Shown here: positions 10,921 through 27,885 of the stretch, piece by piece
Layout: the number at the start of each line of letters is the position of its first letter
Position numbering within the stretch: the first letter of the stretch is position 1
Source of the DNA: an uncultured archaeon
GTDB taxonomy: Archaea; Aenigmatarchaeota; Aenigmatarchaeia; CG10238-14
Direction: 5' to 3'
Length of the DNA: 29,747 bases
Assembly: GCA_964392445.1 (NCBI GenBank)
Contig: CAYMPD010000005.1
Location: 1 to 29,747, forward strand
Made by a program: the position numbers and the translations under genes
The notes under the pieces: generated by a model
Seen by the model: only the letters and a program-made list of their open reading frames with translations
Told to the model about the DNA's origin: nothing
Database searches by the model: none

Positions 10921-12345
10921 ATGAAAGTAGTAAGTTCAAAGGGACAATTAAATACCTTCAGCAAACAGTTGTTCATTGTAGCAGCTTCTATAGCTTTTAT
11001 TCTTCTCTTTATGTATATGCTTTCTTTTAAGCAAACCACTGTGAAAGAAAAGGAATCTTCCGACTTCAAAGAAAATTCCCTGAACCTGTTGCAAAAATTA
11101 ATAAACGATGAGAATTGTCTAGCATACCAATACAATCAAATATCCCATAAAACAGTTTTGGATAAGAATAAAATCGATATATTTAGTAAAGAATATCGAG
11201 AAGTAGAACCCGACTGTGCGAAGGCGTTAAATTTTGATTATAATGTGAAGATTGTTCAGCACGAGTACAGTTTCCATTTATATCCGGGAATTCCGATTAA
11301 GGAAAAAGTTAAGGGAGGGGTATTCAAAAAGATATTAAGATTGATTGACGGAAAAAGAATTGCTTTTATCTTGGACTCCTCTGGTAGCATGAGAGATTAT
11401 GGAGGGAAATGTGACTCCGATCCCAAATATCCTAATACAAAAATATGCTGTCTGAAGAAATTCATGTACAACTTCATAGATGAGATGAGTGATGAAAGCG
11501 TTATAACCGTGATACCTTATGGGACTACAAAAAATATATGTGATCCCCAGATTTTATTTCCCTTCACTAAGTTAGATAGTATTGAAACAAGAGAACAATT
11601 GAAGTTAAAAATTGAAACTATGTATCCCCAAAGCGGAACGCCTATGGGACCAGCTCTAGAAAATGGATTCATATATTCTCGGGATAACAATGGAGAAGTG
11701 ATAGTACTTTTGACAGATGGATGTGAAAATGTTTGCAACAGTGATACAAAATCCGTGGCTGAAAATTTTAAAGACTTGGGTATTGCCGTTCATACAATAG
11801 GATACGGAACAGCTATCTGCCCACCACCAATCAAGGAAACAGCAAAAGTTACCAATGGGACATACTCCGAGGTTGAATCTTGCGAAGAGCTCATATACCA
11901 ACCACCAGGAAACATTACCAATGTGAGCGTGTCTAGAGAGGAATGGATCTTCGGTTTAACTGATCTTTATAGCTCCTTCTCCCCTGAAAAATCTCGACAA
12001 GAAGAGTTGCAGATTTCTTTACCAGTAACGATAAGGTATAATGAGAGTTTTTCTGCGGAGGGAACTATCTTCATTTACTCTGTGAAGGGAGAATTAGAGG
12101 AATTATATAGTTTGCTTGAAGATACTTGTGAAAAAGCTCAGGAAGGCCAAGAAATAAAATTTTCTAAACAATTCCATTTTTCCTATCCAGTGAGATATTC
12201 GGGTGATGAAATTTGTATGATGGACTCCTGCAAAAAATTTGTCTGCCCCTATGATCTAGATTTTGAAAATATAGAAAATGAGGGCGATTATGTACTAGAA
12301 TTCTCCTTTGATAGTATGGATGAAAGAATAGTGGTGAGAAAGTAA
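10921..12345 (+). CDS. Pilin-like protein (class III leader SKG|QL) with inserted von Willebrand factor A domain
   Basis: KG-Q leader plus hydrophobic helix. vWA MIDAS elements FILDSSGSM, SGTPMG..L and VIVLLTDG. Flanks align with the 13638 gene. Confidence 0.85.
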   Translation: MKVVSSKGQLNTFSKQLFIVAASIAFILLFMYMLSFKQTTVKEKESSDFKENSLNLLQKLINDENCLAYQYNQISHKTVLDKNKIDIFSKEYREVEPDCAKALNFDYNVKIVQHEYSFHLYPGIPIKEKVKGGVFKKILRLIDGKRIAFILDSSGSMRDYGGKCDSDPKYPNTKICCLKKFMYNFIDEMSDESVITVIPYGTTKNICDPQILFPFTKLDSIETREQLKLKIETMYPQSGTPMGPALENGFIYSRDNNGEVIVLLTDGCENVCNSDTKSVAENFKDLGIAVHTIGYGTAICPPPIKETAKVTNGTYSEVESCEELIYQPPGNITNVSVSREEWIFGLTDLYSSFSPEKSRQEELQISLPVTIRYNESFSAEGTIFIYSVKGELEELYSLLEDTCEKAQEGQEIKFSKQFHFSYPVRYSGDEICMMDSCKKFVCPYDLDFENIENEGDYVLEFSFDSMDERIVVRK

Positions 12346-12420
12346 TATTGGATTCTAAAAAATTGAAACCCTTCAACAACTTCTATAACTTTATTACCCA
12401 AAAAATAAATATTATAACTT

Positions 12421-13629
12421 ATGAAAGGGCAATTGATTGCTTTCGTTTTCATTATTCTCGCTGTTGCTGGAGTTATAACTGGATATGTTTTTTACAATAT
12501 TTTTTACGGTAGCCAACACCAAACCCAGACTTTCAAAGTTCATACAATAGATGCTGTCAGAAATCTGATTGAAAGTTTTAAGAATTATCTTCATTTGTCT
12601 TTGACTTATTCTTCTAATCAAGCTTTAAGGGAGCATGCTCAATCTGGAGCTTTGATGCCCGCAGGTGACTGGATTTGTAATGGCCCCAATCCTGTGGAAG
12701 TAGAAGATTCTAGAGAATGTCTGGAAAAACATACTACTTATTATCTGAATGTTTATTCTGATCTATTTAACACATCATTACCTGTGAATTTTAACAAGGA
12801 CTACTTTTCTGGATGTGAATATGGGGTTGATGAAAGTGGTGTACTTGATGGAGAATATGATGAAGGTTATTTTTGGTCAAATTGCTCGGGAAGTAAAGTT
12901 TCTGTTTCTGATAAAAACATAAATGAGTACGAAGAAATAACTACGAACGATTATATAACCAAGAATAGATACTGGTATATGTTCAGAATATATGATGAAT
13001 GGGCTAGAGCTGATGTCTATTCTAAGTGTGTATGTGGGTGCTGTGTTGGTTGTGCTGGTTGTGACTGTACTTTAGATTGTGCGAGAAGAGCTTACGAAGA
13101 TCTGGTAAGTAGGTTTGATGATGATGTTATTTGTTATGAACCAGAGGATTGGGAATGTTGTGATCATGAATATGGTCCTATATCTTGTCAGCCTAGAAGT
13201 GAATGTTTAGACTGGGAAGATACAGATTGTAAATGTGCAGGTCATGATTGTACAGAACCTCCACCTCTAGAAACAGCTTCTTTTTCGAGTAATTCAAAAC
13301 TGGAGAATAATCTTTGGTATGTTATTAGAAAAAATGGAGAAGATACTTTATCAAATTCATCTATTTACTTGCAAAATCTAAACTGCAATTGTGATTACTG
13401 GGTGGAGAATAGACTAGCCGCTACCTATTTGTTTACATGTCAAGATCATAAATATTATGTACCTTCAGATGAAGGGCCGGTTCCCCTAACTTTCAATGCC
13501 CTTGCGACCGCTAAATGGAGATGTCCAGATACCTGCCATAATACAGCTACTTGTACCTGTCCTGGTGGGGCAGAAACTTGTGATGAATGTGAATGTCCGC
13601 CCTGCCCACAAAACCTATGTTATGGTTAA
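12421..13629 (+). CDS. Pilin-like protein (MKG|QL) with Cys-rich C-terminal half
   Basis: MKGQLIAFVFIILAVAGVITG. Cys clusters CVCGCCVGCAGCDCTLDC and a terminal 9-Cys segment. Confidence 0.78.
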   Translation: MKGQLIAFVFIILAVAGVITGYVFYNIFYGSQHQTQTFKVHTIDAVRNLIESFKNYLHLSLTYSSNQALREHAQSGALMPAGDWICNGPNPVEVEDSRECLEKHTTYYLNVYSDLFNTSLPVNFNKDYFSGCEYGVDESGVLDGEYDEGYFWSNCSGSKVSVSDKNINEYEEITTNDYITKNRYWYMFRIYDEWARADVYSKCVCGCCVGCAGCDCTLDCARRAYEDLVSRFDDDVICYEPEDWECCDHEYGPISCQPRSECLDWEDTDCKCAGHDCTEPPPLETASFSSNSKLENNLWYVIRKNGEDTLSNSSIYLQNLNCNCDYWVENRLAATYLFTCQDHKYYVPSDEGPVPLTFNALATAKWRCPDTCHNTATCTCPGGAETCDECECPPCPQNLCYG

Positions 13630-13637
13630 TCGTAGAG

Positions 13638-14855
13638 ATGAAAAATATGTATTCAAAAGCACAGACTAATTTTTTCACAAAATTAATTTTCATTGTAGCA
13701 GCTGCTGTAGCATTTTTTCTAGTTTTTATGTACTTTAATTCTTTCAGAAAAGAGACAATTGAAGAAAAGGAAAGTTCAGATTTCAAAATGGGAGCGATGA
13801 ATGTTTTACAAAAATTGATTACTGATGAGAGTTGTCTAGCATATGAATATAATCAAACCCAGCGTAAAATAATTATAGACAAAAATAAACTGGATGTGTT
13901 CTCATCAGAATTTGATGAAGTAGAGCCAAATTGTAGTAAAGCTTTAGGTTTTGATTATAATATACAAATAGGTCAATTTCCACATAATTTTTCTCTTTAT
14001 CCAGAGGAGATCATTATTAACACTGAACCAGAATATTCTACAGATTTTGCTCAACACCAATGTAAAGTCAACCAAAATGAGGTTTTATACATCAAAATGA
14101 ATTTTCTCCCTACTGAAGAGATATGCACGAGATACAGTGAATTGGATATAGTTACCGGTACTAGGACGCTAGGTCTTTGTCCTGATGAATGCTACCCAGA
14201 TCCACTAGTAAATTGTCCTTACCCAGATCATAAAATGTGTGGTATTCCTTATCATTGTCCCGCAGAAAAATGTGAATGCATAGAGAATCAATTAGGTGCT
14301 CATCCATGGATAGTTACTTGTGACGAGGTTGATTTAGAAACCGATTGTACTCCGGTTTCAGCTGCGCATACTTGGTGCGGTAAAGTCGTAAAAGAAATCG
14401 AAGTGCCATCAGGACCTGTGATAGATGTTGATATAATGTCTACTGTTTGGAATTTTGGGTTATCAACAGGTACTGGAGTGAATTCGTTCTCACCAGAAAA
14501 AGCAAGAATAGAAGAAGTTCAATTATCGATTCCTGTAACAATAAGATATAATGAAAGTTTTTCAACAGAAGGTATGATATTTATGTATGCTGTTAGAGGA
14601 GAACTTGAAAGTTTTTATAGTTTATTAGAGGATATCTGTGAAAAGACTGAAAATGAAATTGATGTTAGTTTTTCTAAAAATTTTCATTTCTCTTATCCTG
14701 TTAGTTATAGTGAACCCGATCTCTGTATGTTGGATTCCTGTAAAAAATTTGTTTGTTCCTACGATCTAGATTTTGAAAATATAGAAAGTGAGGGTGATTA
14801 CGTTTTGAAATTTTCGTTAGATCATTCAAATAAAGTAATTAGGGTGGAAAAATAA
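13638..14855 (+). CDS. Pilin-like protein (SKA|QT), paralogue of 10921 with a 12-Cys insert instead of vWA
   Basis: Start is more likely ATG 13638 or 13647 than 13593. N- and C-terminal blocks align with the 10921 gene (KESSDFK, CLAY.YNQ, VEP.C.KAL.FDYN, PVTIRYNESFS.EG, CKKFVC.YDLDFENIE.EGDYVL). Confidence 0.82.
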   Translation: MKNMYSKAQTNFFTKLIFIVAAAVAFFLVFMYFNSFRKETIEEKESSDFKMGAMNVLQKLITDESCLAYEYNQTQRKIIIDKNKLDVFSSEFDEVEPNCSKALGFDYNIQIGQFPHNFSLYPEEIIINTEPEYSTDFAQHQCKVNQNEVLYIKMNFLPTEEICTRYSELDIVTGTRTLGLCPDECYPDPLVNCPYPDHKMCGIPYHCPAEKCECIENQLGAHPWIVTCDEVDLETDCTPVSAAHTWCGKVVKEIEVPSGPVIDVDIMSTVWNFGLSTGTGVNSFSPEKARIEEVQLSIPVTIRYNESFSTEGMIFMYAVRGELESFYSLLEDICEKTENEIDVSFSKNFHFSYPVSYSEPDLCMLDSCKKFVCSYDLDFENIESEGDYVLKFSLDHSNKVIRVEK

Positions 14856-15643
14856 TGGGACGGAAATTTTTATTAATATTTATAATATTTTTTCTTATTT
14901 TATTATTAAGTTTAGTGTTTTTTTTATTAAAAAAAGACGGTACCGAAGTCTTAAAGCCATCCCTTAACAAAAGTTTATGTGATTTTATAATAAATGAGAA
15001 CTTGGGAAAGTCATGTCAAGCCTTGATTTCGAAGGAAGCTAATATCTGTGAAGATGTAGGTAAATACAATACGCTCTGTTTCGAATGGATTTTAGGGTCA
15101 ATAAAACTCTCGGAAGATTATTGTAATAGAATAAAGAATAACTACGGAAAAATTGTTTGTTTCAGAAATCTAGTCGTCCAAGAGAGAGATCTGGATCTAT
15201 GTATGGAAAATGATGACTGTTTCATTCAAAGATTAAAAATAGCATCTTTAACTTCAAATGAGGAAATATGTAATTTTTTCTCGGGGGACGACTTCTATAA
15301 AAATTTATGTCTTGCAGAAACTAGTAATAACAGGAATTATTGTAAAGAAATAAGTGATGATTTTATGAAAAAATCCTGTTTAAGTTATTTTCCTGAGGGT
15401 TTAACCGATTGTGAAGTGGAAAATACTAGGGAAAAATGCCTGTATGAATTGGCATTTCAGAAAAAAGATCCTAAAATTTGTGAATTGATAAAATCTCCTT
15501 CAGGGAGAATCGAATGTGTTCTAAATATTAAAAATGACTTGAATATCTGTATGGAAAAGACAAGTGATATGAAAGATATCTGTATTATTTATTATCTAAG
15601 AAATGAATTAAAAATAAAGTCTGGTAGATTTGATGAGATTTAA
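14855..15643 (+). CDS. Membrane-anchored protein of Cys-pair helical repeats
   Basis: N-terminal TM, then recurring C-x(~9-12)-C units (e.g. CLYELAFQKKDPKICELIKSPSGRIEC). Starts at a TAATG overlap. Confidence 0.7.
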   Translation: MGRKFLLIFIIFFLILLLSLVFFLLKKDGTEVLKPSLNKSLCDFIINENLGKSCQALISKEANICEDVGKYNTLCFEWILGSIKLSEDYCNRIKNNYGKIVCFRNLVVQERDLDLCMENDDCFIQRLKIASLTSNEEICNFFSGDDFYKNLCLAETSNNRNYCKEISDDFMKKSCLSYFPEGLTDCEVENTREKCLYELAFQKKDPKICELIKSPSGRIECVLNIKNDLNICMEKTSDMKDICIIYYLRNELKIKSGRFDEI

Positions 15644-16415
15644 ATACATTATTCTCTTAGTCGTGTTCATAATATCAATAGTATATCTTTCATTTAATAG
15701 TATGAAATCTGAAGTTCCCTCAAATAGTGGTCTATGTAATGATATATCATCAGATAGGCTTAAAATGGTATGCTATGCAATGCTATTGAAAAATTATAGT
15801 TACTGTAAATTATCTTTAGATTTTACTCCTTACTGTTATGATACTGTTTTCCCTCTACTGGATGTTAGTAGAGAAATGTGCAACAAACTTGAAGATGAAG
15901 ATGCTAGATTGTCATGTTACACTAATTTAGCTGTTAAAGAAAGAAATGCGACTATATGCGAATACCTAAAAGGACCAAATCTCGCTGATATTTGCTATAT
16001 TAGAATTTTCGATTATGTTGATCAAATAGATAATATTGAGCTTTGTCAAAATATACCCCATCAGAGTACAAAGTTTGCATGTATGGCCAGTATAACTGGA
16101 GAAATAGGGTATTGTGACAACATAACAATCGAGATATTTGAAAAGGGTTATTGTCTAGCAACTATAACCCATGATGTAAATGATTGTTTTACAGGACAAG
16201 AATTAGGTGGTGCATTGTCACGTGTAACTTTCTCTTCATGTATTAGAAATGTAGCGATAAATACCGGCAATATTACTATGTGTGAAATGGTAGGTATATT
16301 GGAAGATAAGTGGAAATGCAGAATGGCTCTATCTGACTCTCAAGATATCTGTGAAGACGTACCAAGTCCCTACGACGATCTATGCAAATTAGAATACATA
16401 AAAAATAATATTTAA
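15633..16415 (+). CDS. Membrane-anchored protein of Cys-pair helical repeats (same repeat type as preceding gene)
   Basis: N-terminal TM, then repeats such as CYTNLAVKERNATICEYLKGPNLADIC. Overlaps the upstream stop. Confidence 0.7.
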   Translation: MRFKYIILLVVFIISIVYLSFNSMKSEVPSNSGLCNDISSDRLKMVCYAMLLKNYSYCKLSLDFTPYCYDTVFPLLDVSREMCNKLEDEDARLSCYTNLAVKERNATICEYLKGPNLADICYIRIFDYVDQIDNIELCQNIPHQSTKFACMASITGEIGYCDNITIEIFEKGYCLATITHDVNDCFTGQELGGALSRVTFSSCIRNVAINTGNITMCEMVGILEDKWKCRMALSDSQDICEDVPSPYDDLCKLEYIKNNI

Positions 16416-16438
16416 TGTAAAAATCACAATTCTATATC

Positions 16439-18511
16439 ATGGTTGAAAATGATACTGATTTCACATCCCCTTCCGGCAGATATTTTAAAATGTTTATCGA
16501 AGATGAAATAATCAAATTTTCTTTTTACGAGAAATTATGTAAGTTCTCTTATAAGTTCCTAAAAGTCAAATGCCCAAATTTTCTAAGAAAAAAACTTCAT
16601 GAGCCTATCTTTCTTTCAGATATGAAAATCACACCAGACCATGTTTTCTCTCTTAGTATTACTTCATTTATTTTATCATTCTTTATTTTCTTCTGGTTAT
16701 CATTCATAGACTTTCCATCGACATTAGTCCTGCTTATTTTCCCGTTCTTTATAGTTTATAATGTATTCACCTATCCACAATTCCACTCTGAAGTAATAAG
16801 GATAAGAGCTGGTAACGAAATTATAAGTATAATTTTGTACATAGTAACCTATTTATCATTGAACCCAGTTTTTGAAAAAGCCATTGAATTTGCTGCTTCA
16901 AGATGTCACGGCCCACTCGGAAATGATTTGAAAAAGGTTATTTGGGATATAGAATCAGGTAAATATGACAATATTGAAAAAGCATTGGCGATATACACTA
17001 GGAAATGGACTTTATGGAATGAAGAGTTTGTTAATTCTCTGGCTTTATTAAGATTAATAGAAATTCAAGCTACATTAGACGACAGAAATGAGATACTTCG
17101 CACGGCTGTTGAAAGGACAATGAGGAATGCTACCAACAAAATGGAAGAATATGCTTTCAACCTTAAAATGCCCTCAATGATGGTTCTTTTATTTGGTATT
17201 ACAATGCCTTTAATCGGACTTATTATGTTTCCTATGATCAGTATCTTTCTTACCCATGCCGTTAACCCCCTTTACATAGGACTTGGTTACACAGTATTTT
17301 TGCCGTTCTTCTTATGGTGGTTTCTTTATAGACTGATATCGAAAAGACCGGCAACATATTCACATTCAGAAAAGATAGAAGAAGTCCAACCAAGAAAATA
17401 TATAGAAATCAAAAAACTGAACTTAAAGATACCCATAGTTCTAATTGCATTCTTCATAGGCTTCCTAATAACAATACCTGGAATAATTTATTACATAGAA
17501 TTGGCTTCAGATCACTATCTTATTTTCTCCAGATATTCAGGACAAAAGGCTATAAACGAATGGGGGAATTATTGTCTGAGTAAATACGAGCCTGCAGTTA
17601 TGGTAAGAGATACTTTCAAAGCTATGACACTTATATGGGGTATTGGCGCCTTTGTCTTTCTTTTAACCTATCTTAAAACTAAAGGACCTTATGAATTTGA
17701 CTTGTACATAAGAAAACTCGAAGAAGATTTCACTGAAGGGTTATTTGAACTCCAAACCGCATTAAAGCAGAATATACCACTTGAAATTGCCATCCTCAAA
17801 GTCTCAGAGCAATATAAAAGACTTAAAAGGGAAAAAACTCCAGTTGCCAAGTTTTTTGCTGAATTTTATCAAATGTTATTAAAAACTGGGAGACCTACCC
17901 AAACTGTATTGTTTGGGAAAAACGGGTTAATAACAAACCTACCTTCCTCTATGATCAAAAATATAATGAGGATTATTACTAGTGCTCTTTACAAAGGTTC
18001 TGTAATAGCTTCGAGAGTAACCAAAAATATAGTTACTTATTTGAGGAGACTAAGGGAAATAGAACATATAATTAAGAAAAGTATGGCCGAAATAATTTCT
18101 AATTTAACTATGGCTGGAGGATTTATATCACCAGTAATAGCAGGAATAGTGGCTTCTTCTTCTGTAGTTATGGTCCAACTTCTTCAAGCGGTTGCAAGGG
18201 TACTGAAAACTATTGAGGATATGTACAGCCTCGGGACTGATGTTGGTGGATCTATGAGTGATACCTTAGGATTAATCAATCTTCAAAGTGTGATGCCTCC
18301 AACACTTATGCAGCTAATCGGTGGAATATACCTAATCGAGATTGTGATCATAATAAGCATATTTGTGACTGGAATAGATAGGGGCTTCAATAAAGTCTAT
18401 CGTGATCATATGATATCAAATCTTATAATTAAATCAATGATATGGTTTACTTTGGTCTTCTTTATAATGGTTCTGTTATTCCAACCGATAGTAAATCTTA
18501 TCAATCCGTGA
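16439..18511 (+). CDS. Type IV pilus/Tad membrane platform protein (T2SS-F family, fused TadB/TadC, ArlJ-like), copy 1
   Basis: 690 aa with two cytoplasmic-domain plus TM-bundle halves (EKAIEFAASRCHGPLGNDLKKV, ELQTALKQNIPLEIAIL). Sits among class III pilin genes. Confidence 0.85.
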   Translation: MVENDTDFTSPSGRYFKMFIEDEIIKFSFYEKLCKFSYKFLKVKCPNFLRKKLHEPIFLSDMKITPDHVFSLSITSFILSFFIFFWLSFIDFPSTLVLLIFPFFIVYNVFTYPQFHSEVIRIRAGNEIISIILYIVTYLSLNPVFEKAIEFAASRCHGPLGNDLKKVIWDIESGKYDNIEKALAIYTRKWTLWNEEFVNSLALLRLIEIQATLDDRNEILRTAVERTMRNATNKMEEYAFNLKMPSMMVLLFGITMPLIGLIMFPMISIFLTHAVNPLYIGLGYTVFLPFFLWWFLYRLISKRPATYSHSEKIEEVQPRKYIEIKKLNLKIPIVLIAFFIGFLITIPGIIYYIELASDHYLIFSRYSGQKAINEWGNYCLSKYEPAVMVRDTFKAMTLIWGIGAFVFLLTYLKTKGPYEFDLYIRKLEEDFTEGLFELQTALKQNIPLEIAILKVSEQYKRLKREKTPVAKFFAEFYQMLLKTGRPTQTVLFGKNGLITNLPSSMIKNIMRIITSALYKGSVIASRVTKNIVTYLRRLREIEHIIKKSMAEIISNLTMAGGFISPVIAGIVASSSVVMVQLLQAVARVLKTIEDMYSLGTDVGGSMSDTLGLINLQSVMPPTLMQLIGGIYLIEIVIIISIFVTGIDRGFNKVYRDHMISNLIIKSMIWFTLVFFIMVLLFQPIVNLINP

Positions 18512-22081: not shown

Positions 22082-23443
22082 ATGTCAGCATCAGAATTTT
22101 TAACTATAATTGGAGTTATCCTAGTCGGCTTACTCTTTTTTGCAATAGCCAGAAATTATATTTTTGGAGAGGGAGTAAAAACTAAAGAGTACGGATACAA
22201 AGCTGATGCCCAAGAAATAATAGCACTAATAGAAAAAGTTTCTGGAGAACCTAATGAATTTACTATGTATTGTCAAGATATATCTCTATGTGACATCGAA
22301 GTTAAAGGTGGGATTTTAACATATGAAAAAAATGATTTCAAATATTCTTATCCAATATCCAAAAATTTAGAAGAGGTAACAATGGAAGAAGTAACTAGAA
22401 TTTGTGTAATCAATCAGAATAAGAGTGTCACTTTGCATGGAGGGAGTGTTATTTGTATTCTTGATACTAGGTGTACTCCTGAGGAGTGTTTGGAAGATTG
22501 TTTGGACTGTTATGGTCCTGACGATGTTTGTGTGGGTGATGGTTATTGTAATCCGTATATTGGAGAAAATTGCAGAACTTCTCCTGATGATTGTCAATGT
22601 GATCCTGAAAAAATCTGTTGTCCGGAATCCTTCGATGCTGATGAGAATGGATGTTCTGAGACTGTGGATATTGTAAGAGGTAATGAATGTTGGTGTAATG
22701 AACAATGTGAGGGAAGTTTGGAATGTAATCCTACTACCGATGATTTCAGTGATTATGCTAATGCTTGTTGTGAATCTGGTAAAGGATGGGATGGTACCGA
22801 ATGTAAAGAATTGGACGTACTTGATTTTTTCATTATACCTGTTGGGATATCTGACCCAGGTAATTATAATAACATCGCAAATCAGTTTATAGATCATTTT
22901 GTAGCAACATCTCCATTTAGAGATTGTAGTGATATAAAAGATAGAATAAAATTTTGGATAATAGAACCATCTGACTGTCCATCATCTGCTCAGACATCAT
23001 ATTGTGATCACTGCTCAAGTTGTATTAATATAGGAAGATCATGTGCGAGAAGAATGGAATCTATTTATGGAGTAGCTTTTGATAAATTCGCTGTTTTAAC
23101 GGAAAGTGGAGGGTGGAATGGCGGATGCGCAGGTAATATTCCGAATGATGGCTCTTCATCTAGTCTAATCCCTTGTAGTTTATCAGGTAATTGTGTTCCT
23201 ACACACGAAACGGGACATACATTAGGATTAGGTCATGTAAATTGTGGGGTCGCTTGTCATGCTTGTTCTTATAATAATCCAAATTGTCCAGACTGTGATC
23301 ATCCAGATAGGGCTGAATTTATAATGGATTATTGTACACCAATGCGAAGATTCGGACCAGAAGGTTATAATTTCCTAAAAACACAATATATAGGTACATC
23401 TCCACATAATCAGGGTTTAGCAAGGTGGTTAGAAGGATGTTAA
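22082..23443 (+). CDS. Pilin-like protein without class III leader, with Cys-rich spacer and metzincin-type zinc metallopeptidase domain
   Basis: MSASEFLTIIGVILVGLLFFAIA, Cys-rich middle region, LDFFIIPVG...FVATSPFRD (M64-like strand/helix), THETGHTLGLGH (HExxHxxGxxH, 23204-23236), FIMDY Met-turn. Confidence 0.8.
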   Translation: MSASEFLTIIGVILVGLLFFAIARNYIFGEGVKTKEYGYKADAQEIIALIEKVSGEPNEFTMYCQDISLCDIEVKGGILTYEKNDFKYSYPISKNLEEVTMEEVTRICVINQNKSVTLHGGSVICILDTRCTPEECLEDCLDCYGPDDVCVGDGYCNPYIGENCRTSPDDCQCDPEKICCPESFDADENGCSETVDIVRGNECWCNEQCEGSLECNPTTDDFSDYANACCESGKGWDGTECKELDVLDFFIIPVGISDPGNYNNIANQFIDHFVATSPFRDCSDIKDRIKFWIIEPSDCPSSAQTSYCDHCSSCINIGRSCARRMESIYGVAFDKFAVLTESGGWNGGCAGNIPNDGSSSSLIPCSLSGNCVPTHETGHTLGLGHVNCGVACHACSYNNPNCPDCDHPDRAEFIMDYCTPMRRFGPEGYNFLKTQYIGTSPHNQGLARWLEGC

Positions 23444-25761: not shown

Positions 25762-27885
25762 ATGTCAATATTAGAGAAAATACTCGGAAATAAAGAAAAT
25801 TATAACCAACAGGAAATAGAAAGACGAGCTAGAGAATATTCACCTAAAGCTCCTGAGAAGCCCAAAAGATCCTTCTTTGAAAAAGCATGTAAATTCGCTG
25901 GGAAAACACTAAATATAAAAGCACCAGAAGGGATCCGAGAAAAACTAAATAAATCCATTTTAATGCTGGATCTTGATATTACTCCAGACAGTGTAGTTTC
26001 ATTGACTGTACTAACTTTTGTTGTTTCAATTATAACAATTATACCTCTATTTTTCCTAGTAAAAGGGTTCAATATATTCCTACCATTTTTACCTTTAATC
26101 GGGACTTATTTTATTTACACATATCCTAGTTATCTGGCAACAGTTACCAAGATTAGAGCGTCTGATGAGACTGTTAAAGTGATACTTTACATGGTCATTT
26201 ATCTTAGATTCAATCCACAGTTAGAGGGAGCTATGAGCTTTGCTGCTGAGCATTGTCATGGCCCGATAGGGAAGGATTTGAAAGAACTTGTATGGGGTAT
26301 GGAAGGTGGACAATATCTAAACCTGAAAGAAGCACTAAGTACCAAAATGGAGAAATGGTTGATTTGGGATAAAGAATTTGTTGAATCGATGAATTTACTT
26401 TTATCAATGACAAGAATAGGATCGGGGGATGTGAGAAATAAGACTTTGAACAAAGCTCTATCTTATATCCTTACCTCGACTTACGAAAAGATGAAAGAAT
26501 ATAGCCGAAATTTAAGATCCCCGATAACATTGATACATAGTATGGGTATAACTTTTCCTTTGATGGGTTTGGTAATGTTTCCAATGATATCGATTTTTCT
26601 ACATGATCAACTCAATCCTTTTTACCTTGGAATCGGTTATATTGTGATATTGCCTTCAATTTTGTATTTTTATTTGAAAAGAACTATTTCTAAAAGACCT
26701 GGTGCCTTTTCTTCACCGGATATATCTGACCACCCTGACCTGCCTCCAAAAGGAAAATTCGAACTAAATCTCCCCAATAAAAAAATCCTTATTCCTGTTC
26801 TTTTTGTTTCAATACTAGTTGTCATTTATAGTTCTATTCCAGGTATTATTCACTTCATAAATTTAGGTTCAAGTTATTTTGGTTTCAAAAAGAATCCTAT
26901 GACTTTTACAGAGAATTGGAGAAATTATCTTAGTGCCCAGTATAAACCGGATAATTTATTTAGGTTAACTTTTTATTGTTTGAGTATAGTTTGGGGGATT
27001 GGGTTTGGAATTGTGGTTTATACTTTAGGTTCAAGTGTTCAGCGCCTTAAAATAAGAGACCAAATTAAAGAGATAGAAGACGAATTTCAGGTTGCATTAT
27101 TCAACCTAGCAGATGTTTTATCCTCGGGTATACCAGTAGAAACTGCTTTAGAAGAGGTTTCAAAGAAGTACAAACAATCCAAGATGACTAGTTCTCCTAT
27201 GTATTCTTTCTTTGTTGATATGTTGAGAAACATGAAAAACATGGGGATGACTTTTGAAAGGGCTGTATTTGATAGAAAATATGGTGCTATTGTAAGGTTC
27301 CCTTCAAAGTTAGTTCAGGACATAATGAAAATAATTGTTTCAGCGTCAAGGAAATCTTCATTGATACTTTCTGTAGCGACAAGATCAATATCTGACTTTC
27401 TTTCTAAAACTAAAAACATCGAATCTATGTTAAAACAAATGCTAGAGGAGATATCATCCGCCCTTAAACTTCAAGCTCAATTCATCGCTCCTTTCATCTG
27501 CGCTATTGTTGCAACTATGGCTACATTTATAATTGAATTACTACAAATGATAGCTGAGTTTTTGGTTTCTATTGAGGAAACTTTTAATATGGGTGGAACT
27601 TTCATACATAGCGGAACAACTCAATTTTCCCAGAGTCTTAGTATGGTGAATCTTGAAAAGGTGATGCCGCCAACTATATTTCAACTGATAATAGGTATAT
27701 ACATGATAGAGATTGTGGTTATACTTTCTTACTTTTTGAATGGGATAAGAAATGGTTTTGATGAAACTACAAGAAATGTGATGATTGGTAAAACACTTGT
27801 AACTTCGTTGATACTTTACTCAGTTATACTTTTGATATCATTATTCTTAACTAAGAGTATGACTCCAGTGTTCGGAGGACTGTAA
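25762..27885 (+). CDS. Type IV pilus/Tad membrane platform protein (T2SS-F family, fused TadB/TadC, ArlJ-like), copy 2
   Basis: 707 aa. Aligns end to end with the 16439 gene (FAAEHCHGPIGKDLK, GLVMFPMISIFL...LNPFYLGIGY, ISKRP, VMPPT.FQLIIGIYMIEIV). Confidence 0.85.
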   Translation: MSILEKILGNKENYNQQEIERRAREYSPKAPEKPKRSFFEKACKFAGKTLNIKAPEGIREKLNKSILMLDLDITPDSVVSLTVLTFVVSIITIIPLFFLVKGFNIFLPFLPLIGTYFIYTYPSYLATVTKIRASDETVKVILYMVIYLRFNPQLEGAMSFAAEHCHGPIGKDLKELVWGMEGGQYLNLKEALSTKMEKWLIWDKEFVESMNLLLSMTRIGSGDVRNKTLNKALSYILTSTYEKMKEYSRNLRSPITLIHSMGITFPLMGLVMFPMISIFLHDQLNPFYLGIGYIVILPSILYFYLKRTISKRPGAFSSPDISDHPDLPPKGKFELNLPNKKILIPVLFVSILVVIYSSIPGIIHFINLGSSYFGFKKNPMTFTENWRNYLSAQYKPDNLFRLTFYCLSIVWGIGFGIVVYTLGSSVQRLKIRDQIKEIEDEFQVALFNLADVLSSGIPVETALEEVSKKYKQSKMTSSPMYSFFVDMLRNMKNMGMTFERAVFDRKYGAIVRFPSKLVQDIMKIIVSASRKSSLILSVATRSISDFLSKTKNIESMLKQMLEEISSALKLQAQFIAPFICAIVATMATFIIELLQMIAEFLVSIEETFNMGGTFIHSGTTQFSQSLSMVNLEKVMPPTIFQLIIGIYMIEIVVILSYFLNGIRNGFDETTRNVMIGKTLVTSLILYSVILLISLFLTKSMTPVFGGL

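Follow-up and report, generated by a model that had tools for sequence, protein, structure and literature searches.

Modular type IV pilins, in which a small pilin module presents an additional ready-made domain, have been described in bacteria. In Streptococcus sanguinis, PilB carries a von Willebrand factor type A (vWA) domain and PilC a ConA/LamG-like lectin, with the extra module attached downstream of the pilin module (Raynaud et al., 2021, PMC8179133; PMC9934059). The survey of these proteins began from the bacterial N-terminal methylation motif IPR012902, and archaea are absent from its main text (PMC8179133). GspK and ComZ are cited there as minor (pseudo)pilins with a domain inserted into the sheet, and GspK is proposed to sit at the pseudopilus tip (PMC8179133). 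A 2026 survey of archaeal type IV filaments reports them to be common across most archaeal phyla, with Asgard and DPANN lineages as the exceptions, and does not use the words 'modular', 'vWA' or 'von Willebrand' (PMC13705601). Our own literature search for archaeal, DPANN or Aenigmatarchaeota modular pilins, of incomplete coverage, found no description of the family reported here. We analyzed a 29,747-nucleotide stretch of DNA from an uncultured archaeon of the Aenigmatarchaeota (contig CAYMPD010000005.1 of assembly GCA_964392445.1), called the window below. Two genes of the window encode proteins P0001 and P0004, which share one scaffold and carry unrelated modules in its middle. The two are probably paralogues within a so far unnamed family of pilin-like surface proteins of the Aenigmatarchaeota (DPANN), which have class-III-type (prepilin) leaders and whose modules are swapped by recombination.

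The two genes are divided as follows; a slash in a leader marks the putative cleavage site, and MIDAS is the metal ion-dependent adhesion site of vWA domains.

10921..12345, + strand: scaffold paralogue 1 (P0001, 474 amino acids), with leader MKVVSSKG/Q, a long alpha1 helix, a split pilin-like domain holding the vWA module, and a C-terminal beta subdomain
10921..11286, + strand: N block of P0001 (residues 1-122), ending in SFHLYP; the family N-block hidden Markov model (HMM) matches residues 6-115
11287..11943, + strand: vWA cassette of P0001, 219 amino acids, 8 Cys, complete MIDAS; Pfam VWA, VWA_2 and VWA_3 above their cut-offs
11944..12345, + strand: C block of P0001, from WIFG to the stop; the family C-block HMM matches residues 339-474
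13638..14855, + strand: scaffold paralogue 2 (P0004, 405 amino acids from the ATG at 13638), with leader MKNMYSKA/Q and a Cys-rich module
13638..14003, + strand: N block of P0004, ending in NFSLYP, from the alignment with P0001
14004..14447, + strand: Cys-rich cassette of P0004, 148 amino acids, defined by its 12 Cys and by homologous inserts in relatives
14448..14855, + strand: C block of P0004, from WNFG to the stop, from the alignment with P0001

The longest open reading frame (ORF) of paralogue 2 begins at 13593 and has a 37-base overlap with the end of the preceding gene, P0002. An actual start at the ATG at 13638 is supported by the family alignment and by the 405-residue form of the protein found in the public collection.

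The first-pass annotation of this locus had proposed a shared scaffold with unrelated middles from the letters alone. Its coordinates (LYP anchor ending at 11286 and 14003, W.FG anchor starting at 11944 and 14448, 219 versus 148 residues between them, 12 Cys) were all reproduced by script, and pairwise alignment confirmed the arrangement. P0001 and P0004 match each other by BLASTP with E = 1e-98, with similarity only at both ends. The N blocks are identical at 72 of 122 residues and the C blocks at 88 of 135, and identity between the anchors is at chance level in both protein and DNA. The two genes are separated by 1.3 kb on the same contig. The P0001 module lies between residues 122 and 342 and is followed by 133 scaffold residues. 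It is a complete vWA domain, as had been claimed: Pfam VWA (PF00092) matches residues 147-322 above the gathering score (E = 2e-11, 44.8 bits, cut-off 23.8), PF13768 and PF13519 also match (36.1 and 29.6 bits, cut-off 27 for each), and the MIDAS residues D152, S154, S156, T240 and D266 are all present. P0004 has no match in Pfam.

The scaffold is common to a large family. A word-based search returned 35 relatives, and a profile search of 1.84 billion representatives returned 175 at E ≤ 1e-3, taken at 50% identity and ranging from 77 to 1258 residues. Separate N-block and C-block HMMs were placed on every protein and the segments between the blocks were clustered. For the 110 full-length members, the insert states are:

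vWA domain: 35 members
Cys-rich module of 142-181 amino acids with 12-24 Cys: 30 members
none (2-25 residues): 30 members
beta-propeller of about 360 amino acids: 6 members
other singletons, without a Pfam family: 5 members
mini insert of about 50 amino acids with 5 Cys: 2 members
large insert of more than 600 amino acids: 2 members, with a third large-insert protein outside the 110

A family limited to the two inserts of the window is clearly not what the catalogue holds: the states include no insert, mini-Cys, the Cys module of about 150 residues, vWA, propeller, double LamG and others. One insert of 1013 residues (P0122) contains two Laminin_G_3 (PF13385) domains (E = 6.7e-64), and the propeller inserts carry precomputed Pfam matches to PF07494, PF08450 and PF01436 (SGL, NHL and Reg_prop families; P0035 and P0037). 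Inserts homologous to the Cys module of P0004 occur in 36 representatives (142-181 residues, 12-24 Cys), and this module is the commonest insert type in the subclade. It has no Pfam family and no Foldseek match in the PDB at E ≤ 0.001, and on its own (P0004 residues 117-268) it gave no usable match in the Atlas feature search. Over 36 vWA inserts, the MIDAS positions are kept as D in 36, S/T in 36, S in 35, T in 34 and D in 36. Conservation in 34 to 36 of the 36 indicates functional constraint on the cargo.

All of these inserts occupy one site. In an 11-sequence alignment, the members with no insert, a Cys module, a vWA domain, a propeller and so on all vary between the same two anchors. We also built a profile from insert-less members only and searched 301 sampled genomes of the phylum in six frames. 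The scaffold was matched in 75 of the 301 genomes and in 41 of 151 genera. Insert-bearing ORFs break at profile positions ~117-126 (five cases at 108-109), and the single site near position 119 holds at least seven states. An insert-less member, P0038 (252 amino acids), lies on contig C17 of the same genome as the window. The insert-less scaffold, P0004 and the neighboring P0002 have no Pfam family (even at E up to 10) and no NCBIfam family; the sole output was a sub-threshold DUF7374 match on P0060.

Some relatives depart from this layout. Ten proteins of 803-904 residues (P0136, P0137, P0140, P0151, P0153, P0159, P0160, P0165, P0168 and P0169) have a vWA-containing insert of 435-531 residues and match the C-block HMM over roughly its first 70-90 positions only, followed by 170-260 extra residues. 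Proteins of this type may carry a second variable region in place of the C-terminal beta subdomain. P0035, P0043, P0070 and P0072 have 90-270 residues upstream of the K-G motif, P0035 with a hydrophobic segment and about 95 residues; these long N-terminal parts may be mis-called starts or genuine fusions. A 535-residue ORF on contig C12 (G000:C12:27170-27595, − strand) matches positions 5-164 of the insert-less profile (E = 6e-7) and may be a further carrier, more distantly related, that uses this pilin-like domain. On contig C17, the insert-less paralogue is preceded by a 145-residue gene that also has a class-III-type leader and is followed by P0039 (L003:308-1492, − strand; 394 amino acids), which has an MKG/Q leader and a vWA-like VIDTSGS motif. 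That P0039 is the P0001 vWA cargo split off as a separate gene is unsupported, with a BLASTP E of 0.53 and no Pfam match.

The earlier annotation had also placed the cargo inside the scaffold rather than appended to it, and the folding evidence supports this. We built AlphaFold2 (AF2) models of both paralogues from family alignments. The P0001 model (mean predicted local distance difference test score, pLDDT, 94.0; predicted template modeling score, pTM, 0.70) runs from a helix at 12-62 through strands 106-113 and 116-120, the vWA domain at about 125-325, strands at 333-390 and a helix at 391-407 to beta structure up to 473. The P0004 model (mean pLDDT 93.4) has the same order, with the helix at 12-62, strands at 106-120, a beta-rich insert at about 123-274, strands 290-303 and 309-321, a helix at 322-338 and beta structure up to 404. 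Short strands and a helix lie between helix 12-62 and the hairpin 106-113/116-120 in both models.

Natural proteins of about 250 residues without an insert join the N and C blocks directly. In the ESM Atlas, a cluster of 240-residue insert-less Aenigmatarchaeota proteins superposes on model residues 21-405 with a template modeling (TM) score of 0.62, normalized by the match. Archaeal proteins of 172-186 residues, including DUF7288 and DUF7285, superpose on residues 10-321 with TM scores of 0.59-0.67 and 141-152 aligned residues, across the insertion site. Stand-alone ORFs of 145-170 residues in several genomes match profile positions 3-166 and thus span the site near 119. Matches to PDC/Cache-type alpha/beta domains in the VIA search span residues 46-321, with Z of only about 5, and are used here for the span and not for homology.

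That the two flanking blocks might fold as independent domains in simple linear order was examined with a two-chain test as well. For P0004, the soluble N block (40-122) and the C block (283-405) were modeled as separate chains alongside three controls. The pair scored 0.61 and the best control 0.00. The mark set for this score is reached by 58 of 80 solved complexes and by 2 of 110 mismatched pairs, a calibration that is rough here, as our own alignment was used. The runs agreed in at least 94% of contacts, with a partner pLDDT of at least 85. The closest pairs (110 with 314/315, 108 with 316/317 and 106 with 318/319) are antiparallel and join N-block strand 105-111 to C-block strand 314-319. 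Helix residues 45-61 contact C-block residues 292-298 and 314-318, and C-block residues 292-321 touch N-block residues 45-61 and 101-114. The modeled contacts support, without proving, an intimate interface between the blocks. Together with the insert-less homologues and the matches across the site, they speak against independent flanking domains. It is highly likely that the insert exits and re-enters one alpha/beta domain at a hairpin loop, and does not lie between domains. The C-terminal beta subdomain (about 340-405) follows linearly.

Exchange of cassettes by recombination, which had been suggested from the window alone, is directly visible as three alleles at one orthologous locus in a related lineage with backgrounds about 97% identical. 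P0036 (vWA; contig L004, GCA_023659905.1) and P0030 (Cys-A; contig L005, GCA_023659935.1) have nearly identical scaffolds. Their contigs are syntenic at 90-97% DNA identity, with the common order RadA, two small genes, a protease carrier and its partner, a 161-residue gene, a 429-residue gene, the scaffold gene, a 261/265-residue gene and the binding protein of an ATP-binding cassette (ABC) transporter. Along the scaffold gene, 28-30 of 30 bases per window agree up to about nucleotide 360, agreement is random across the insert, and 27-30 of 30 agree from W.FG on. The third allele, P0034 (Cys-B; contig L018), occurs as the same gene in two more metagenome-assembled genomes (MAGs) and two Logan assemblies. 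In L004, L005 and L018, the flanks are 96-98% identical in DNA over about 15 kb, the three inserts are unalignable in all pairwise comparisons, and the breakpoints are sharp, at the FDY and W.FG anchors. Four near-identical MAGs hold three alleles (vWA, Cys-A and Cys-B) at one orthologous gene. In a second pair, vWA versus propeller, the flanks are 70-76% identical and the middle is unalignable.

The scaffold and insert histories are also incongruent across the family. On a tree of scaffold columns only (quick search, LG+G4), the insert label needs 29 changes, against a minimum possible of 6 and a mean of 59.7 for shuffled labels, although these figures are approximate. Counting only branches with good support, at least 11 changes are required for vWA, 7 for 'none', 5 for Cys and 5 for propeller. 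The inserts closest to the vWA domain of P0001, at 50-51% identity, are those of P0073 and P0075. The scaffolds of these two proteins share only 25-28% identity with the P0001 scaffold and rank 82 and 87 in its scaffold match list. The eleven nearest scaffolds to P0001 (54-62%) all carry Cys modules. This pattern fits the arrival of a vWA module in the scaffold of a Cys-carrying lineage. The inserts of P0001 and P0036 are 39% identical, and the vWA inserts share family features such as KCDS..YPNTKICC, which suggests that these modules circulate inside the family and were not captured repeatedly from unrelated vWA proteins. Taken together, a shared scaffold with a single site, diverse inserts and recombinational exchange among them is very probably the correct description of this family.

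The locus of the related lineage has a second carrier that swaps cargo too. The protease carriers at L004:5468-8288 and L005:5927-8301 are 91% identical over the first 250 residues, and their cargo is a Peptidase_C25 (615 amino acids) in one strain and a Peptidase_C1 (460 amino acids) in the other. The overlapping partner gene differs as well (323 versus 328 amino acids, with CG.G.CE repeats). L018 combines the C25 version with the Cys-B scaffold allele, so the two variable sites reassort. By eye, the Cys-rich spacer of this carrier, CYGPD..C.GDG.CNPYI.ENC, recurs in a gene at 22082-23443 of the window that ends in an HExxH metallopeptidase motif. The vWA-allele strain (L004, 13605/13607) also lacks a 2.27-kb segment with an ABC permease and ATPase, which is present in L005 (13470-15737) and L018 beside the conserved binding-protein gene.

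The window is contig C5 of a 1.2-Mb genome in 54 contigs (94.9% complete), and the nearest named relatives of the studied proteins are Candidatus Aenigmatarchaeota MAGs. It has a base composition of about 34% G+C, and its left end holds archaeal housekeeping genes (FtsZ, PCNA and an OB-fold protein). Between 10.9 kb and the window end, almost all + strand genes begin with a short leader, for example MKG, and then a hydrophobic stretch. The neighbors of the scaffold pair are:

12421..13629, + strand: partner gene P0002, 402 amino acids, Cys-rich, with an MKG/Q class-III-type leader; its counterpart is conserved in L004 and L005
14855..16415, + strand: two paralogous Cys-rich membrane-anchored genes of 262 and 261 amino acids (ORFs, without a Pfam family)
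16439..18511, + strand: platform protein 1, of the type II secretion system F (T2SSF)/ArlJ type, 690 amino acids; Pfam T2SSF E = 2.1e-5, 24.9 bits, just under the 25.2-bit cut-off
25762-27885: second T2SSF-type platform, E ~2e-5, just below the Pfam cut-off

P0002 is 44% identical over its full length to the 429-residue gene immediately upstream of the scaffold gene in L004 and L005. The position downstream of the scaffold gene is occupied in L004, L005 and L018 by a gene of 261/265 residues, a likeness of position. Both T2SSF-matching proteins are long and polytopic, and platform protein 1 is the only type IV filament machinery component adjoining the scaffold pair. The same adjacency is found in G042, a genome of another genus, where a platform 1 orthologue of 62% identity adjoins a 440-residue Cys-type scaffold gene. 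Within a set of 20 genomes from the same GTDB family, P0004 (47%) and platform 1 (62%) have close orthologues in G042 only. The three congeners have just the insert-less scaffold and a gene orthologous to platform 2, at about 38% identity to platform 1. This distribution suggests that the left half of the locus (window 10921-18511) is an accessory, patchily distributed module. Outside the window, the genome carries three Peptidase_A24 genes (contigs C21, C16 and C26) and at least four T2SSE ATPase genes.

Several features suggest that the scaffold is pilin-like. The leaders read ...SSKG/QLNTFSKQLFIVAASIAFILLF in P0001 and ...YSKA/QTNFFTKLIFIVAAAVAFFLVF in P0004. As a sequence pattern, a [KR][GAS] leader motif with a hydrophobic stretch is present in 88 of the 110 members (KGQ in 36 and KAQ in 17; median leader of 6 residues), and both models place helix 12-62 before a sheet, as in the small archaeal proteins mentioned above. 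The MKG-leader genes and the two platforms of the locus, the conserved partner P0002 and the A24 and T2SSE genes of the genome point the same way. We lean toward a function of the family as a filament subunit or tip adhesin. The leader would then be cleaved and the protein incorporated into the filament, and the tip position would follow the examples of GspK and PilB.

A number of findings weigh against this account and lend weight to its rivals. Toward the filament, Pfam and NCBIfam pilin or class-III models do not match the scaffold, and no solved pilin was recovered. The P0004 model found nothing in the PDB by Foldseek at E ≤ 0.001. The wide VIA search gave Z ≤ 5.3, with PDC/Cache/CusS-type sensor domains and, for the helix, coiled coils. 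The hydrophobic stretch starts about 8 residues past the putative cleavage site and holds a conserved Lys, which is not the textbook arrangement. No recognizable leader motif is present in 22 of the 110 members, partly from truncated gene starts, and Pfam scans of the window found neither an ATPase nor a prepilin peptidase gene. The scaffold may instead be a membrane-anchored surface protein, with an uncleaved anchor or as a bindosome-like class-III protein, that shows its module on the envelope; the modules would be exchanged as described and there would be no pilus. The missing pilin matches and the unusual spacing from the K-G/A motif to the hydrophobic core agree with this, and inserts of up to 1013 residues would be hard to fit in a filament body. 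In Sulfolobus, class-III signal peptides are also found on sugar-binding proteins that are not pilus subunits. However, the K-G/A-Q motif is strongly conserved, the gene has MKG-leader genes around it and shares its cluster with two platform proteins, and the adjacency of scaffold and platform is repeated in G042. The 50-residue helix and sheet also match small archaeal proteins, one cluster of which is labeled class-III signal peptide (a match over residues 286-405 only). We regard the membrane-anchored display protein as unlikely and, at the same time, as a serious rival.

On the side of module exchange, the clean allelic replacement is seen in a related lineage and not in this genome, the vWA allele of the L004 population is known from one contig, and the scaffold tree is quick and has many weakly supported forks. 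The modules might never have moved if ancient paralogues had their scaffold blocks homogenized within genomes by gene conversion, so that scaffolds group by genome and inserts by type. The window scaffolds are indeed mutual closest relatives (62%) with different inserts, and tandem paralogues are the classic substrate for conversion. However, the window copies duplicated long ago: they are 59-65% identical and lack any block of raised DNA identity, which indicates no recent conversion here; no recent event of any kind is visible in this genome. L004, L005 and L018 each have one scaffold gene at the locus, and the genome holding L005 (about 700 kb) has a single expressed family member, with no second copy as donor and no silent donor copy in the manner of Neisseria pilS found in it. 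Three alleles in 96-98% identical backgrounds of about 15 kb amount to allelic replacement, and conversion or cassette swap would in either case be recombination in the conserved flanks. An explanation without cassette movement is very improbable. Still less probable are assembly or binning artefacts, that is, chimeric contigs of co-occurring strains or species. All the related sequences are MAG or Logan contigs, and the vWA allele rests on its one contig. The Cys-A allele, however, is found on 3 contigs and Cys-B on 4, from separate assemblies and runs and with all frames intact. The breakpoints coincide with the site in homologues only 25-60% identical across 75 genomes, and the window's own two genes are on one contig. 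Gene conversion and assembly chimeras were rejected as the main explanation of the mosaic alleles, given the absence of an L005 donor and the presence of the alleles in separate assemblies.

Our preferred reading is thus of a pilin-like scaffold with exchangeable modules. In this reading, each protein has a short K-G/A leader, a hydrophobic stretch, a helix of about 50 residues packed on a small beta sheet, then a second helix, and a beta subdomain at the C-terminus. The permissive site is the hairpin loop that joins the second and third long strands of the sheet, and an autonomous module loops out from it. The module would be the working part, anchored and presented by the scaffold. The vWA module with its intact MIDAS is predicted to bind proteins in a metal-dependent manner, and LamG and propeller modules are predicted to bind glycans or other ligands. 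We consider the scaffold most likely to be a minor subunit, or one at the tip, of a type IV-like filament that the neighboring platform protein would assemble; permanent anchoring in the membrane is the less likely alternative. Modules are very probably swapped between scaffold genes via homologous recombination in the conserved flanking blocks, and this probably alters what the cell adheres to. Strains of one population thereby come to hold different modules at one locus, and the present genome would have kept two versions side by side after duplication.

DPANN archaea are generally regarded as living in attachment to other cells, and few of the molecules by which they choose and hold their partners have been identified. 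The family is a concrete candidate for partner attachment, with a conserved carrier and a module that varies between strains otherwise about 97% identical in the region. We tentatively propose that Aenigmatarchaeota, and perhaps other DPANN archaea, may possess a 'hot-swappable' tip adhesin whose modules are exchanged between strains by recombination. If this is true, strains of one species that live together would have different host or surface specificities, and the system would be an archaeal counterpart of the cassette exchange in phage receptor-binding proteins and of bacterial pilin variation. The same principle would extend to the neighboring carriers that display proteases. The replacement of alleles at the population level may serve as a marker for strain-level studies of host specificity in metagenomes. 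The Cys module with 12 to 24 Cys, the commonest cargo of the subclade and without a recognized fold or family, is a target for structure determination. The natural catalogue of one loop tolerating 0 to ~1000 residues could be of use in protein display.

The locus shares features with several known systems. Archaeal type IV filament loci likewise hold an ArlJ/T2SSF platform and several class-III proteins in one cluster, often with adhesin-like proteins alongside (PMC13705601); the family here differs in having no Pfam or NCBIfam model. The first-pass annotation had drawn a parallel to PilY1 and TadG. The functional likeness stands, as there too a type IV filament apparatus displays a MIDAS-bearing vWA domain that serves in adhesion or surface sensing, but it goes no further. 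PilY1 itself is large, is not a pilin and docks on minor pilins, whereas the present proteins carry a putative prepilin leader and helix themselves and have no homology to these proteins beyond the vWA fold. GspK and the bacterial modular pilins PilB and PilC are closer. The topology of the family resembles that of GspK, the minor pseudopilin of the type II secretion system (T2SS), in having the insert within the sheet, although neither Foldseek nor VIA recovered a structural or sequence match to it. GspK is bacterial and has one family-specific alpha domain, in contrast to the interchangeable recognizable binding domains seen here.

With the bacterial modular pilins, the family shares a class-III-type leader and a small, putatively pilin-like module presenting a ready-made binding domain, and the idea of filament versatility through grafted modules. 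The kinds of module also recur. The vWA domain with MIDAS and the Laminin_G_3 domain are found in both, and PilB (7b7p) is among the Foldseek matches of the P0001 model, all of them vWA proteins at E ~1e-9 and uninformative on the scaffold. An extra recognizable domain that is not specific to type IV pili, which marks the modular pilins, is present here as well (VWA in P0001, Laminin_G_3 in P0122, and propellers in P0035 and P0037). The scaffolds have no sequence homology, and population-level allelic exchange is not part of the bacterial description. The new elements are an archaeal carrier family without a Pfam or NCBIfam model, a fixed internal site tolerating 0 to ~1000 residues, and allelic replacement of modules within a population. 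The module is grafted at the C-terminus via a short linker in the bacterial proteins and occupies one fixed internal loop here, which would extend the bacterial modular-pilin idea to archaea with an internal-loop topology.

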